Assembly: GCA_963666835.2 (NCBI GenBank)
Contig: CAXXGO010000001.1
Coordinates: 32,001-96,000, forward strand
From: Phycisphaerae bacterium
GTDB taxonomy: Bacteria > Planctomycetota > Phycisphaerae > UBA1845
Reading direction: 5' to 3'
Length of the DNA: 64,000 nt
Below the pieces are notes generated by a model. The model was not told the origin of the DNA. It worked only from the letters and a program-made list of their open reading frames with translations, and searched no databases. Below, piece by piece: positions 30,395 to 43,967 of this stretch. Each line of letters opens with the position of its first letter. The first letter of the stretch is position 1. Made by a program: the position numbers and the translations under genes.

Positions 30395-31096
30395 ATGACG
30401 TGGGGAATCGTCCGGCGTACGGCGGTCAAAGCACTGGCTCTTACTGTCGGAGTAGTGTCACTAAGCTGCGAACGGTCCGCCCCGCCGGACGGATCGGTCA
30501 GAAGCGAACTCACTCGCGGAGCGACCGACCCTTCTGATACTCCGCTTTCACCAATCGATACCGTTCGCCGGATCCGGGAGCACCGCGCGGCCGGACGGTT
30601 TGCCGCGCTTCAAGAGCACCTTCTTCCCGACCAGAGGGCTTACGTGGTCGAGCTGGTTCAGTCGATGGATCGGCTGATATGGGCCAACGGGGTGCTGCAG
30701 GCCGCGGTGACCGACCGTTTCGGCCCGGCGACCGCGCGGGTGTTCGATCGTTCGGCCGCGGCCGATGCGATCGGCGTGCTGTCGCAGGATGTCGAGCTGT
30801 TTGGCGAACGCATTGATGGGGACTCGGCTGTAGTGTCGTTTCAGGTGGCCGGGCGCCTGCCGCTGGAGGAGGTGACGTTGGTGCGTCGTAACGGGCGTTG
30901 GCTGATGAGTACGGACGCACCCGTTGCGGGAGTGGCCGGGGTTCTCCGCGAGCTGGCCGACGTTTTGACCGCCTCTGCGCGCCTGATGGATGACCCGGCC
31001 GTATCCGCCGTCGATCTGCAACGCGAACTGGCGTTGCGCGAAGCTTCCATCGGGCGGAAACTCAAGGCCCTGACCGCTGCCGATACGACACCCTGA
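30395..31096 (+). CDS. Hypothetical lipoprotein, last gene of the secretion operon
   Basis: Lipobox VSLS-C; IDGDSAVV...LVRRNGRWL resembles NTF2-like folds; GAGAGG RBS. Confidence 0.65.
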   Translation: MTWGIVRRTAVKALALTVGVVSLSCERSAPPDGSVRSELTRGATDPSDTPLSPIDTVRRIREHRAAGRFAALQEHLLPDQRAYVVELVQSMDRLIWANGVLQAAVTDRFGPATARVFDRSAAADAIGVLSQDVELFGERIDGDSAVVSFQVAGRLPLEEVTLVRRNGRWLMSTDAPVAGVAGVLRELADVLTASARLMDDPAVSAVDLQRELALREASIGRKLKALTAADTTP

Positions 31097-31263
31097 CCGT
31101 ATCGCAGGGCACTGTAGACGTACGAGACCGGCCGTGGTTCTTGCGTAGGGCACGGTCGAGGCACGAGACCTGCCGTGAGGGTTTGTTGCTCCACGATTCG
31201 TACGAATTCCACAGTCCTTAGTTGGGTACCGAACTACGCCGAAGATAGTGACATATGTCCACC

Positions 31264-31472
31264 GCGACCGTGTGGCGATCACCGGGGGCTTTGCCCCCAG
31301 ACCCCCAAGGTTTGTCGCTTGGGAGCCAGAACAGGCCAGGGAGAGCGAGAGCCCGCCGTGCATGCAGACTCCCGCGCCTGTCCCGGCACTGGTACGAGCG
31401 CTCGGGGTGCTCCTCAGCAGAGCCCTGTCCTCTCGACCAGCACACACAAGTCTGACGTGCTGTGCCATCGAG
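31264..31472 (-). ncRNA. Putative structured RNA in the 3' non-coding end of the element
   Basis: At least five helices whose non-Watson-Crick pairs are mostly G-U on the minus strand (A-C mismatches on plus). Confidence 0.6.
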
Positions 31473-32246
31473 TCAAGCATGCTGGCCCTCCAACTCATGA
31501 TCGATCTCCAGGTACTCCTGAACCAGGAAGATGCTGCAACCTAAAGCATGGGCTGTCTCCTTTGCCGTCAGCCCCTGAAGATGGCAGTGGCGGACGCGAT
31601 CGTACTGGCCCAGGTAACGATCCACAGCCTCAAGGCTGTGGTACGTTTCCCGAGCCACTTCGTTAGCCGCTTTGCCTTCTGCGTAATGTTTGAAACAGAT
31701 GATCCGTTTGTGCGTAAGCCCTGTGCCGACATCGTGGACAGTAGCGCGACGTGGGACGATCTGACCGGTCTCGCGTTCGTACGCCGCCAACAATCGCGAG
31801 ACGTCCGACGCATTGACTGCTAACAACTCCGAGAGATCAGAGTTGGACAGAACGCCCCCTTGTTCGTACGCCTGTCGGCATAACCTCAAGCTCTTTTGTA
31901 AGAGCAACTCTCCACGTCCCTTCTTCTGCAAACGCATCTCGATATCCTCGAAGGTACTCACGTCCAAGACCACCGGAAGCAGATCGGTATCCTCAATCCG
32001 TCGACGCTGACTCGGGGGATCTGCGCTGCTGATCGCCATCCAGAGTATCTGACCATGTTGGATATGCTCCTTCGGGAGAACGTGGGCACCGATGACCTCA
32101 AGGATCATCTCTGCGCACAGGTTGCGAATCCGTGGGCCGCCTATGCGTGGAAACTCCGTTTCGATGCGGTGAGCCAACACGTTTCTCAGCGTTTTCGCCT
32201 GCAGGGGACTGTATCTTCTGCTGTTGGTGTCTCGCGGCTTACCCAT
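31473..32246 (-). CDS. DUF1670-family protein (element ORF2)
   Basis: LRLCRQAYEQGGVLSNSDLSELL, PRRATVHDVGTGLTHKRII, HSLEAVDRY and C-terminal HTH; ATG 32246 overlaps the ORF1 stop (ATGGGTAA). Confidence 0.82.
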   Translation of the reverse strand: MGKPRDTNSRRYSPLQAKTLRNVLAHRIETEFPRIGGPRIRNLCAEMILEVIGAHVLPKEHIQHGQILWMAISSADPPSQRRRIEDTDLLPVVLDVSTFEDIEMRLQKKGRGELLLQKSLRLCRQAYEQGGVLSNSDLSELLAVNASDVSRLLAAYERETGQIVPRRATVHDVGTGLTHKRIICFKHYAEGKAANEVARETYHSLEAVDRYLGQYDRVRHCHLQGLTAKETAHALGCSIFLVQEYLEIDHELEGQHA

Positions 32247-33090
32247 CGGATCTTCCCTCTTCACCGAGCTCCTTTTTCCCCCCGCCACAACAACCCAGGC
32301 GCATCAGTTCTTCCAGGTGATAGCCCATGTTCTTGTCGACCGCGCATTCGTCGAGGAGATCAAGGTACTGTTGTACCAACCGCTTGCCTCTCCGCAGAAG
32401 GAAGGCGATTTGCCCGACCTGCATACCTTTCTTTGCCAACTGCGCACAACGGGTGAATGTCGAGACGTAGTTCGCTACAGCCGCCGGTGAATGGCGAAGC
32501 ATGGTGCAGATCTGTGAGGTCGTCTTTCCCTCCAGAGCCAAACGCACGATTTGGCTGCGATGAGTCAACACGGGACCAAGATCGTGTACGATTCCTCGCA
32601 GAGGAATAAGCACCCCGGGATACGCACTCCGGAGAGCGTTCAAATCGCGCGTAATGGTTCGTGGCGTAACAAAGAACATCCGGTAGGCCAGATCTTCGCG
32701 CGTGAGCAGCCCACCTTGACTCAGGGCTTCTTGGCAAAGCGGTGGGATGCGGGCTTGTCGAAAGCCGACCGGCCCCTCCTCCTCCAGAAGTCGATCATCC
32801 TCTGCACCTCGGTGGATTGTCAGGCACACGTTCTGCTTCTGGCATTCGCAGACGGGTTTCCCGGCAGGCTCGTCGGCGTCGACGACGACCAAGCCAATCT
32901 TGCCAGGTGGGGCCTTGCCGGCGTGTTCATCGAGGTACGGGAAGTAAACTTCCTTGACCACATCGAGAACCGCCTCGGCCTCGAATGGCGAACAATGGAG
33001 TCCGTGCTTGATTTCGTGCAAAAACTTGGCATCCAGTGTCTTCGAGTCAAGACGCTCAAGCCTCTCCTTCTTCTTGTTCCGCAGCCCCAT
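32239..33090 (-). CDS. DUF1670-family protein (element ORF1)
   Basis: RIPPLCQEALSQGGLLTREDLA, PRTITRD, PLRGIVHDLGPVLTHRSQI, HSPAAVANY; GGAGG RBS before ATG 33090. Confidence 0.82.
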   Translation of the reverse strand: MGLRNKKKERLERLDSKTLDAKFLHEIKHGLHCSPFEAEAVLDVVKEVYFPYLDEHAGKAPPGKIGLVVVDADEPAGKPVCECQKQNVCLTIHRGAEDDRLLEEEGPVGFRQARIPPLCQEALSQGGLLTREDLAYRMFFVTPRTITRDLNALRSAYPGVLIPLRGIVHDLGPVLTHRSQIVRLALEGKTTSQICTMLRHSPAAVANYVSTFTRCAQLAKKGMQVGQIAFLLRRGKRLVQQYLDLLDECAVDKNMGYHLEELMRLGCCGGGKKELGEEGRSDG

Positions 33091-33157
33091 GCGTAGTCCT
33101 CCCAAGTCCCGAAGTCCGTTACCAAGGTACCCGGGTGGACATATGTCAGGAAGGTAG

Positions 33158-33399
33158 GCATTGCGCCTTGCAGCCCAGGGTTGCCGCGCAGCGGCTACCC
33201 TGGGGTCACGGTTACATCAAAGATGGACCCCAACGGGGTCCCGCCGTTGTTCAACCCGCTTCGGGGTTGGTGTTGGAGAGGATCGGTGCCCCAGGGTGGC
33301 ACTTCGCGGCTGCGCCGCTTCGTTTACCCTGGGCTTTGCTGTTAAACGCCTTCGGCGTACGTCCGATCTCGTAGGGCATGGTCGAGGCACGAGACCTGC
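33158..33399. repeat. Long palindromic repeat unit (right part of the interrupted host repeat) ending in a 29-bp REP
   Basis: CCCAGGGT..ACCCTGGG hairpins and ACGCCTTCGGCGT; closely similar inverted copy at ~43296-43540 and partial copies at ~42310-42345 and ~49265-49340. Confidence 0.85.
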
Positions 33400-33736
33400 C
33401 GCGACGGAGCTTGCCGATGCACCACGGGCCAACAAGTTGGCCCATGCCACCCGCGTGGCATGCAGAGTCGGGTGGCATGGGCGAGCATAGCCGACTCGCG
33501 AGGTACGCAGCCGCCGCTGCACGGATCCCGCGTTAACGATGTGGGCATTTGCAGCTTGCCCGTGAAGAGAAGGACAACGCTGCGGCACTCGACGACGGCA
33601 CCGGCGAGCATCAGCGACCGGCTGCAGTCAGTGCGGCGAGCGTGAGCGACCCGCCTTTGCCCGATAAGCGGCGATCCTCTGATGCGTGATGCCCGCTCCC
33701 TGACGGTCGCGGTACTGACGCGCGTTCCTGCCGGGT

Positions 33737-43164: not shown

Positions 43165-43967
43165 CCGGGTGGCCCATGGCTTTAGCCATGGCGGACGGCA
43201 TCACGTAGCGCAGGCATCCTGCCTGCAGCATCTCGCGCGACGCGCCGAGCGACGGCGTTCCCCGGACATAGCTTTGGACAATGCGCGCCGTTGCGGCAGG
43301 TCTCGCTCCTCGACCGTGCCCTACAAGAGCGAAAGCACGCCGAAGGCGTTTAACAGCAAAGCCCAGGGTAGACGAAGCGGCGTAGCCGCTTCAGTGCCAC
43401 CCTGGGGCACCGGGCCTTCTCGAACACCAACCCCGAAGTGGGTTGAACAACGCCGGAACCCCGTTGGGGTTGATCTTTGATGTAATCGTGATCCCAGGGT
43501 AGCCGCTGCGCGGCAACCCTGGGCTGTAGGGCGCAACGCCTTCGGCGTAGTTCGGCACGCAACAAAGGACCGGGCTCGCGAGACACGCGGATGTCACATT
43601 TTCGTGTAACGCAGACCATTGCGACCCAGATGGCAGGGCTCGCTCCTCGACCATGCCCTACGCAAGAACCATGGCAGGTCTCGTTCCTCGACCGTGCCCT
43701 ACGAGTTCGTGAGACTCCCATGTGGTAAACCGTCCCGAAGGGACGAAGGCACGTAGCCACGGGTGGAGCGCAGCGGAACCCGTGGGAGAATTCGCTCCCA
43801 CGTGCTCCCCGTCCCGAAGGGCCGGCGGACGGTTGCCGAGATCGCGCAATAACAACGGCAGGTCTCGTGCCTCGACCGTGCCCAACGCAAGAACCACGGC
43901 AGGTCTCGTCCCTCGACCATGCCCTACGGAAGACCACGGCAGGTCTCGTTCCTCGGTCGCGCCCTAC
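43165..43967. repeat. 800-bp mosaic of palindromic repeats, containing the empty target site of the DUF1670 element
   Basis: REPs at 43296, 43633, 43674, 43858, 43899, 43939; uninterrupted GCAACGC-CT-TCGGCGTAGTTCGG at 43533-43555. Confidence 0.88.

Follow-up and report, generated by a model that had tools for sequence, protein, structure and literature searches.

The 64,000-nt stretch of a Phycisphaerae genome analysed here (the window; positions 32,001 to 96,000 of contig CAXXGO010000001.1 in assembly GCA_963666835.2) contains, at 31245-33157, a 1913-bp element that has the ends of an insertion sequence (IS) and encodes only two proteins, both of the DUF1670 family, and the question it poses is which enzyme moves it. 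A previous, sequence-only reading had taken the DUF1670 pair to be the recombinase of an undescribed IS class. We find that the element belongs to an IS family that is real, active, widespread and apparently undescribed, and we lean slightly towards an autonomous IS whose DUF1670 pair would supply the transposition proteins.

Copies, ends and insertion site

The source assembly (6.02 Mb, 7 contigs, 92% complete) was searched whole with 31245-33157 and returned six full-length matches (query 1-1913). Relative to the window copy, the other five have 0, 0, 3, 4 and 4 differences in 1913 bp, and the flanks of the six diverge exactly at the element's two ends, where the sequence-only reading had placed them. 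The element is mobile and recently active. Its excision in silico joins CCGAACTACGCCGAAG with GCATTGCGCC, and 36 of the 39 positions agree with an uninterrupted copy of the same repeat at 43518-43556 on the reverse strand. Because AG (CT in gene orientation) is present at both junctions, each boundary carries a 2-nt ambiguity. The parts of the element and of its target are as follows (IR, inverted repeat; REP, repetitive extragenic palindrome).

31245..33157, minus strand: whole element, 1913 bp, with the genes on the minus strand; six copies have common ends and diverging flanks
33149..33157, minus strand: upstream terminal extension CT-ACCTTCC (gene orientation), outside the IR; CTACCTTC(C/T) is kept in relatives of other phyla
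33134..33148: upstream sub-terminal IR, GGTGGACATATGTCA on the plus strand, with the 10-bp palindrome GACATATGTC at 33138-33147
31249..31263: downstream sub-terminal IR, TGACATATGTCCACC, with the palindrome at 31250-31259
31245..31248, minus strand: downstream terminal extension CTAT (gene orientation), followed by flank CT; relatives have NNAT-C in the same place
31235..31244: left half of the split target hairpin (TACGCCGAAG); the left flank ends in ACGCCGAAG in five of the six copies and in ACGCCGTAG, with one mismatch, in the C7 copy
33158..33200: right half of the split target (GCATT...) and body of the REP-like repeat, from flank comparison
43518..43556, minus strand: unoccupied copy of the same repeat (empty site), from repeat comparison
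33346..33358, plus strand: second unoccupied target, ACGCCTTCGGCGT, 189 bp away from the element

The two IRs are perfectly complementary 15-mers, as had been claimed, and outside them lie 4 nt (ATAG) on one side and 9 nt (GGAAGGTAG) on the other; each contains a perfect 10-bp palindrome. The 15-mer occurs 13 times in the genome, at the 12 ends of the six copies and in one 39-bp remnant, and no other element of this 92%-complete genome carries these ends. The proposed CT core shared by both junctions holds within this genome, where the base after the downstream C is T, but among relatives the downstream side keeps only the C: locus L014 has CC, L022 has CG, and A, C or G replaces the T in 6 of the 17 metagenome solo sites described below. 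The core is therefore a single base, the T being part of the element's upstream end.

All six copies lie in one orientation at one point of a REP-like hairpin, ACGCC-GAA-GGCGT. In gene orientation this point is the junction of the 5' stem arm and the loop (ACGCC|TTC GGCGT); the right flank is GCGTT in five copies and GCATT in the window copy, and any target duplication is at most 1-2 nt. Exact ACGCCGAAGGCGT sites without an insertion number 44 in the genome; they fall into two sub-families of the repeat, which diverge right after GCGTT, and insertions were found in both. Hairpins of the general form S5(..C)-TNC-S5' (a 5-bp stem ending in C and a TNC loop) number 608, of which only 44 are ACGCC-TTC, and yet the ACGCC-type half-site (ACGCCGAAG; ACGCCGTAG in the C7 copy) borders the six copies, a solo site, the 39-bp remnant and both flanks of a palindromic junction; stem sequence or wider repeat context therefore matters. 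The flanks of relatives are the two halves of GC-rich hairpins with other stems (GCCCC, CGTCCC, GACCC, GCCCCC), in which the element directly follows the last C of the 5' arm; the requirement differs between lineages.

The DUF1670 pair across phyla

The two genes of the element were confirmed as members of the DUF1670 family by profile search, and the pair is translationally coupled and paralogous, as the sequence-only reading had it.

32239..33090, minus strand: ORF-A, 283 aa, DUF1670 paralogue (PF07900 E 1.9e-37, HTH_23 E 1.7e-5; 1432 homologues)
31473..32246, minus strand: ORF-B, 257 aa, full-length DUF1670 (PF07900 E 1.9e-49; 1453 homologues; AlphaFold2 model with pLDDT 88.3)

The start taken for ORF-A is the ATG behind GGGAGG, and the ATG of ORF-B overlaps the ORF-A stop (ATGGGTAA). 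The PF07900 gathering threshold is 25 bits; ORF-B reaches 168.5 bits (profile positions 1-220) and ORF-A 129.2 bits (positions 32-220), and the two are 26% identical over 250 residues (E 3e-16). The genome has 12 PF07900 matches, namely six A/B pairs and no others.

Homologues at E<=1e-3 exceed 1400 for each ORF. Among the 120 listed per ORF, most lie on contigs of ~1-3 kb, as with collapsed repeats, and their names, where they have any, are 'DUF1670' or 'CsgD/NarL regulator'. An exhaustive search gave 970 DUF1670 clusters at 50% identity, and in a protein atlas only DUF1670 clusters were matched. A scan for related loci (one genome per species, 14 closer alignment rows) recovered 55 loci, in Planctomycetota, Acidobacteriota, Nitrospirota, Verrucomicrobiota, Chloroflexota, Spirochaetota, Rhodothermales, Lentisphaerota, Desulfobacterales, Zixibacteria and a metagenome-assembled genome (MAG) of the candidate phyla radiation. 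An acidobacterial MAG has four copies at 99.3-99.9% identity. Within the element's own phylum the family occurs in only 3 of 400 other genomes, none of them of the same class; the family is large but patchily distributed. A tblastn search of a plasmid collection gave zero matches.

Of 37 loci examined, 35 have an A-type ORF immediately upstream of B, and in one more the two form a single fused frame. In 23 of 41 loci, IRs around a GACAWWTGTC or GCCAWWTGGC core bracket the A/B pair in units of 1.71-2.04 kb, which leave no space for a third gene, so that the conserved IRs expected at other DUF1670 pairs were indeed found; two of the remaining loci have another IR type and sixteen have no IR, some being cut by contig ends or degenerate. 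The core is GACATATGTC or GACAATTGTC at protein identities of at least 55% and GCCAWWTGGC at ~40%, and palindrome types differ between lineages (GACATATGTC versus GCCAATTGGC). The upstream outer end CTACCTTC(C/T) is kept in L014, L015, L016, L018-24, L020/21, L022, L026/28/29 and L053; across related loci both this CTACCTTCY end and the downstream NNAT-C are conserved, and the flanks are not. As judged from these comparisons, the only conserved content is the coupled DUF1670 pair, two palindrome-centred sub-terminal IRs and short asymmetric extensions (CTACCTTCC upstream, NNAT(C) downstream). A sub-lineage represented by L031 and L044 has CATCT as its upstream outer end in place of CTACCTTCC, and its IR reaches into CATCT. 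A scan for sigma-70 promoters found 1 site against 0.5 expected and none at the element ends. DUF1670 and PF07900 go unmentioned in PMC (8.1 million papers) and bioRxiv (0.36 million preprints), where supplements lay outside the scope of the search and a mention in a table is possible.

Protein folds, the 3' RNA module and known systems

Searches of both ORFs with Pfam and NCBIfam, and of the ORF-B model with Foldseek and VIA, detected no DEDD, DDE, HUH, serine or tyrosine recombinase domain; motifs of the first four classes had likewise been missing in the sequence-only reading. No NCBIfam IS-family transposase model, a set whose scope excludes the model-less ISNCY subgroups, scored above its cut-off for either ORF; ORF-B had zero matches, and the sole entry for ORF-A was an IS630 model at 12.7 bits against a cut-off of 100, through one helix-turn-helix (HTH) at model positions 2-39. 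There were no matches in either ORF to the DEDD transposase families PF01548 and PF02371 (Pfam), and none below E 1e-3 in PADLOC and PHROGs. At its N-terminus the ORF-B model has a small alpha/beta domain of three helices and two strands, which is followed by a winged-helix-like module and two HTHs resembling sigma region 4. An RNase-H-like DDE domain has no Pfam match, and the model holds only two beta strands; among its fold matches Tn3 resolvase appears with its HTH only, at Z 5.3, and Pfam finds no resolvase or integrase catalytic domain. PDB profile searches returned only a designed tandem-HTH repeat protein (8vd6) and DevR. In ORF-A an N-terminal domain (invariant E47, P75, C83, D98) is followed by HTH modules; modelled alone, that domain reached pLDDT 58.5, too poor for a fold search, and prediction of the A+B complex (score 0.09, mark 0.32) gives no verdict.

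Among 78 B-type sequences G174, H179 and Y211 are invariant and D172, K180, H203, Y245, R121 and Q129 are conserved in at least 90%; among 36 A-type sequences the invariant residues include E47, P75, C83, D98, D170, G172, H177, H200 and Y208, with E74 and K78 at 90% or more. A family-wide motif, R-x-T-x-H-D-x-G-x3-T-H-(K/R), lies between the first and second HTH. Fused chains with two (504-546 aa) or three (930-952 aa) DUF1670 units exist, the latter being P0263, P0264, P0271, P0285 and P0394. In three B-type sequences (P0242, P0247, P0392) the chain continues into a DnaG-type CHC2 zinc ribbon, and P0383 begins with part of a UvrD helicase; such chains probably arise by read-through where an element has landed beside one of these genes, as it might in a hairpin upstream of dnaG.

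The 3' non-coding end of the window element is 228 nt long, not the ~210 nt first estimated, and contains a structured module.

31283..31440, minus strand: structured RNA module, model R1, gene-sense, in the 3' untranslated end; optional in the family

This conserved module of ~160 nt is found in the 228-nt end and in ten related elements, and also at L007:1497-1658(+), L009:1500-1692(-) and L071-L086. RNAalifold predicts 29 pairs in its alignment, 14 with compensatory changes; 93.5% of module cells are paired, compared with 83.6 +/- 1.0% in shuffled alignments (0/500) and 29-53% when partners are slid, and G.U outnumber A.C pairs by 20 to 5 on the gene-sense strand. Rfam has no family at E<0.78 on 31100-33300. 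A covariance model gives 12 matches in this genome: the six copies, a remnant in L007 and the five copies of a resident IS110-family element. The latter (1826 bp; G000:C7:69788-71613, L009, and four further copies) encodes a 395-aa DEDD transposase, has the sub-terminal IR CATGAAAGGC and a 560-nt 3' non-coding end, and carries the module antisense to its transposase gene; it is the genome's only IS110-family type and accounts for its only PF01548 genes. Elsewhere in the phylum the module was found in 9 of 150 genomes, beside IS110, ISL3, IS3 and IS21 genes, a phage integrase and a PIN/HicB pair, and it looks as though it travels between unrelated insertion sequences.

A long 3' non-coding end, one of the IS1111-like traits cited in the sequence-only reading, is not a trait of the family: where it is long it holds a module common to IS110, ISL3, IS3 and IS21, and it is just 28-116 nt in L018 (four copies), L022, L050, L051, L054, L055, L058 and L061. 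Since such relatives are still multi-copy, no element-borne guide RNA is needed. Two sources of a guide were considered and rejected. In seven elements the longest match between the 3' end and the element's own target is 4-11 nt, no better than with the targets of other elements; the non-coding regions of the resident IS110 element match the target or the end junction over 6-7 nt, which is the shuffled mode.

According to the passages cited, IS1111-group elements have 11-13-bp sub-terminal IRs and 7- and 3-bp extensions and encode a DEDD transposase, their 3' non-coding region yields a seekRNA of 70-100 nt with complementarity to both strands of the target, and they form a circular intermediate and make no target duplication (PMC11187229); IS621 has a conserved CT core, and the bridge RNA of IS1111 elements lies in the right end (PMC11208160). 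The DUF1670 element resembles IS1111 members such as ISEc11 and IS4321/IS5075, as these sources describe them, in its sub-terminal IRs (15 bp rather than 11-13 bp), its short asymmetric extensions, its site and orientation specificity without duplication (6/6 copies), its REP or hairpin target, which is frequent in that group, and the often long non-coding end downstream of the gene (PMC11187229, PMC11208160). It differs in having no DEDD/RuvC-like transposase and no PF02371, in IRs that hold a perfect palindrome, and in extensions of 7 (ACCTTCC) or 9 nt upstream and 4-6 nt downstream, depending on the C/CT assignment; its long 3' end is optional, the RNA shows no complementarity to the target, and no circle was detected in the records and contigs given below. 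With the end anatomy and insertion behaviour shared but the enzyme and guide RNA absent, it therefore acts to some extent like an IS1111 without being a member of the group. With IS621/IS110 it has in common the CT at both junctions in this genome and the REP target, but its relatives share only the downstream C, and it has no such recombinase and no bridge-like RNA with donor and target loops (Rfam, E<=1; guide test).

The ssr9 RNA gene of ISPpu9, an IS110-family element of Pseudomonas putida with REP targets, is described as a separable 3' module (PMC12288879), and R1 is similar in its position at the 3' end of a REP-targeting IS but unlike ssr9 lies next to IS110, ISL3, IS3, IS21 and phage integrase genes as well as DUF1670. 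The HTH of ORF-A matches HTH_23/HTH_29, like the N-terminal paired HTH of IS630/Tc1-mariner transposases, although the element has neither a DDE domain nor a TA duplication. IS200/IS605 elements and integron attC sites likewise use DNA hairpins in strict orientation with no target duplication; the DUF1670 element differs from both in having no HUH or tyrosine enzyme and in its true IRs, as opposed to distinct sub-terminal hairpins.

How the element may move

The ends and the proteins co-vary across the family, which favours autonomy. A bolder claim, which we advance only tentatively, is that the A/B pair constitutes a new class of transposase or recombinase, made of HTH modules and a small N-terminal domain, that would use no RNA guide and would belong to none of the DDE, DEDD, HUH, serine and tyrosine classes; it would recognise the palindrome inside its own IRs and insert at the stem-loop junction of hairpins with lineage-specific stems. 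On the autonomous reading in general, the A and B proteins, of which natural fusions exist, would act together to bind the palindromic IR cores and synapse the element ends. They would then cut and rejoin at the outer C/CT, 7-9 nt and 4-5 nt beyond the IRs, and conservative breakage and joining would put the element into hairpin loops in an IS1111-like manner, with different proteins and no sign of an RNA guide. The palindromic cores are themselves recombinogenic and yield deletion, inversion and end-to-end products.

Several observations weigh against autonomy. A catalytic fold was not seen: with the ORF-B model, Foldseek against the PDB gave nothing at E<=0.001, and the best VIA matches (Z 6.4) were HTH-type domains only. 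Invariant polar residues are few, and we read Y211, Y245 and H203 as occupying usual HTH core positions, which leaves the linker motif R-x-T-x-H-D-x-G-x3-T-H-(K/R) and residues of the ORF-A N-terminal domain, chiefly acidic and cysteine (E47, P75, C83, D98 and the nearly invariant E74), as candidates for an active site. No fusion with a known nuclease or recombinase domain occurs among 4 longer homologues and 11 long representatives. Genes of the IS110 family were found here and in 9 of the 10 other carriers tested, compared with 135 of 400 genomes in the phylum background, and the resident IS110 element shares the ~160-nt RNA module; such co-occurrence would be expected anyway, the carriers being mostly large, long-read, IS-rich MAGs. 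The junction of the circular intermediate that the sequence-only reading had predicted, or of a tandem, is absent from 241 million metagenome records, this genome and the Logan contigs of four runs, in which the element is a single ~1.9-kb contig with neither a circle nor an empty-site joint. This absence does not count against a rare intermediate, as contigs drop rare forms. Seven sequencing runs contain the element, all of them represented by Logan contigs and none listed as RNA. Of the original proposal, then, an active, site- and orientation-specific element with IS1111-like anatomy and a DUF1670 pair as its only genes stands, whereas nothing shows DUF1670 catalysis.

The element could instead be non-autonomous, its proteins binding DNA only, for end recognition, targeting or regulation, while the enzyme is provided in trans by the resident IS110/IS1111 DEDD recombinase or by a host processor of junctions or hairpins. 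The predicted proteins do appear purely DNA-binding, and the IS1111-like anatomy (sub-terminal IRs, asymmetric extensions, duplication-free specific insertion), the excess of IS110-family genes in carriers and the RNA module common to both elements all point the same way; the ssr9 module riding on the ISPpu9 IS110-family transposase is described as a precedent (PMC12288879). We nevertheless regard this explanation as rather unlikely. The DUF1670 ends are found on no other element in the genome, and the resident IS110 element differs in its IRs and its insertion sites; its non-coding regions match the target or the end junction no better than shuffled sequence, and the DUF1670 element's own 3' RNA has no target match above the cross-target controls. 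Multi-copy relatives dispense with the long non-coding end, the same outer ends recur across phyla, as would fit recognition by co-inherited proteins, and carriers G409, G045 and G400 have no IS110 match, although these genomes are incomplete. The possibility of a non-autonomous derivative, raised from the outset, is thus weakened by the self-contained relatives but not eliminated, given the IS110 genes here and in most other carriers.

A different arrangement is suggested by loci at which the ends meet at the palindrome. A 25-bp solo site in the usual target at G000:C6:739719-739747 (L069) reads ATAG-TGACATATGTCA-GGAAGGTAG, so that a single palindrome connects the two outer ends, and similar solo sites occur at 17 metagenome loci (L096-L112, about 13 distinct), each between GC hairpin arms; the pattern has 0 matches in 400 other genomes of the phylum. 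At G000:C5:242184-242225 a 42-bp perfect palindrome consists of flank, downstream end, mirrored downstream end and flank, and is an end-to-end junction of two copies with the intervening DNA lost. A solo 39-bp remnant of the downstream end occupies the usual target half-site at G000:C6:1881239-1881277 (L008). The remnant at L007:1497-1700 comes from a second DUF1670-type element (palindrome GACAATTGTC, like L026/28/29), of which only the RNA module and one IR are left, with no DUF1670 gene; its 3' non-coding end is joined via the palindrome to an upstream-type outer end (AGAAGGTAG), as after inversion between IRs. These products may be by-products of the element's own enzyme at a symmetric site, or may equally be due to host slippage or template switching at short repeats brought together by the IRs.

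From such products one could construe a cassette of two layers, in which the 25-bp CT-ACCTTCC-TGACATATGTCA-CTAT-CT is an attachment platform and crossover at the symmetric centre of the palindrome integrates and excises the 1.9-kb cassette in the manner of a resolvase. The recurrence of 'empty platforms', all in hairpin loops, here and in the metagenomes, the two further products that break inside the palindrome (the C5 palindrome and the inner-downstream/outer-upstream remnant) and a symmetric centre (TA or AT), expected if deletion and inversion both happen, would all fit this arrangement. It is improbable all the same: the platform itself would need to arrive at an identical position in numerous unrelated hairpins, those of two REP sub-families in this genome and those with other stems elsewhere, so the outer ends move with the element, and empty platforms are scarce (1 versus 6 full elements here, none in the 400 other genomes). 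The same scar would be expected from host slippage between the IR-apposed 10-bp repeats, as in the 'nearly precise excision' of Tn10. Homing, in which the pair would be an endonuclease that cuts empty REP hairpins and the element would be copied in by repair, seems very improbable. It would account for insertions confined to one repeated sequence in one orientation, and HTH arrays are common as targeting parts of homing endonucleases, but homology in the flanks extends for ~10 nt on one side only, the sites in use come from two sub-families whose sequences part immediately beyond GCGTT, the family has reached unrelated hairpins in different phyla, and neither Foldseek nor VIA revealed a nuclease fold.

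If the DUF1670 pair is the transposase, about a thousand protein clusters filed under 'unknown function' or misnamed as CsgD/NarL regulators would represent a sixth kind of transposition enzyme, and compact, sequence- and orientation-specific insertion into hairpin loops would be attractive for genome engineering. If another enzyme is borrowed, the element would be a widespread hitch-hiker showing that IS1111-like ends can be used by foreign cargo. In either case DUF1670 gains a biological context, many dead-end metagenome contigs of ~2 kb are explained, and the 10-bp palindrome, the defined outer ends and the 13-nt target provide testable substrates.

Two further repeats were noted in the course of this work. 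A very abundant short palindromic repeat (…ggcacgagacctgccgtg…), unrelated to the element, lies at 31081-31242 and 33349-33400 of the window and has a very high summed contig depth in the four runs; it accounts for the only joints found in those runs (31175-33371). During mapping of the IS110 element, a 410-bp repeat of ~95% identity was seen in at least 13 copies, one of them at G000:C7:69127-69536.

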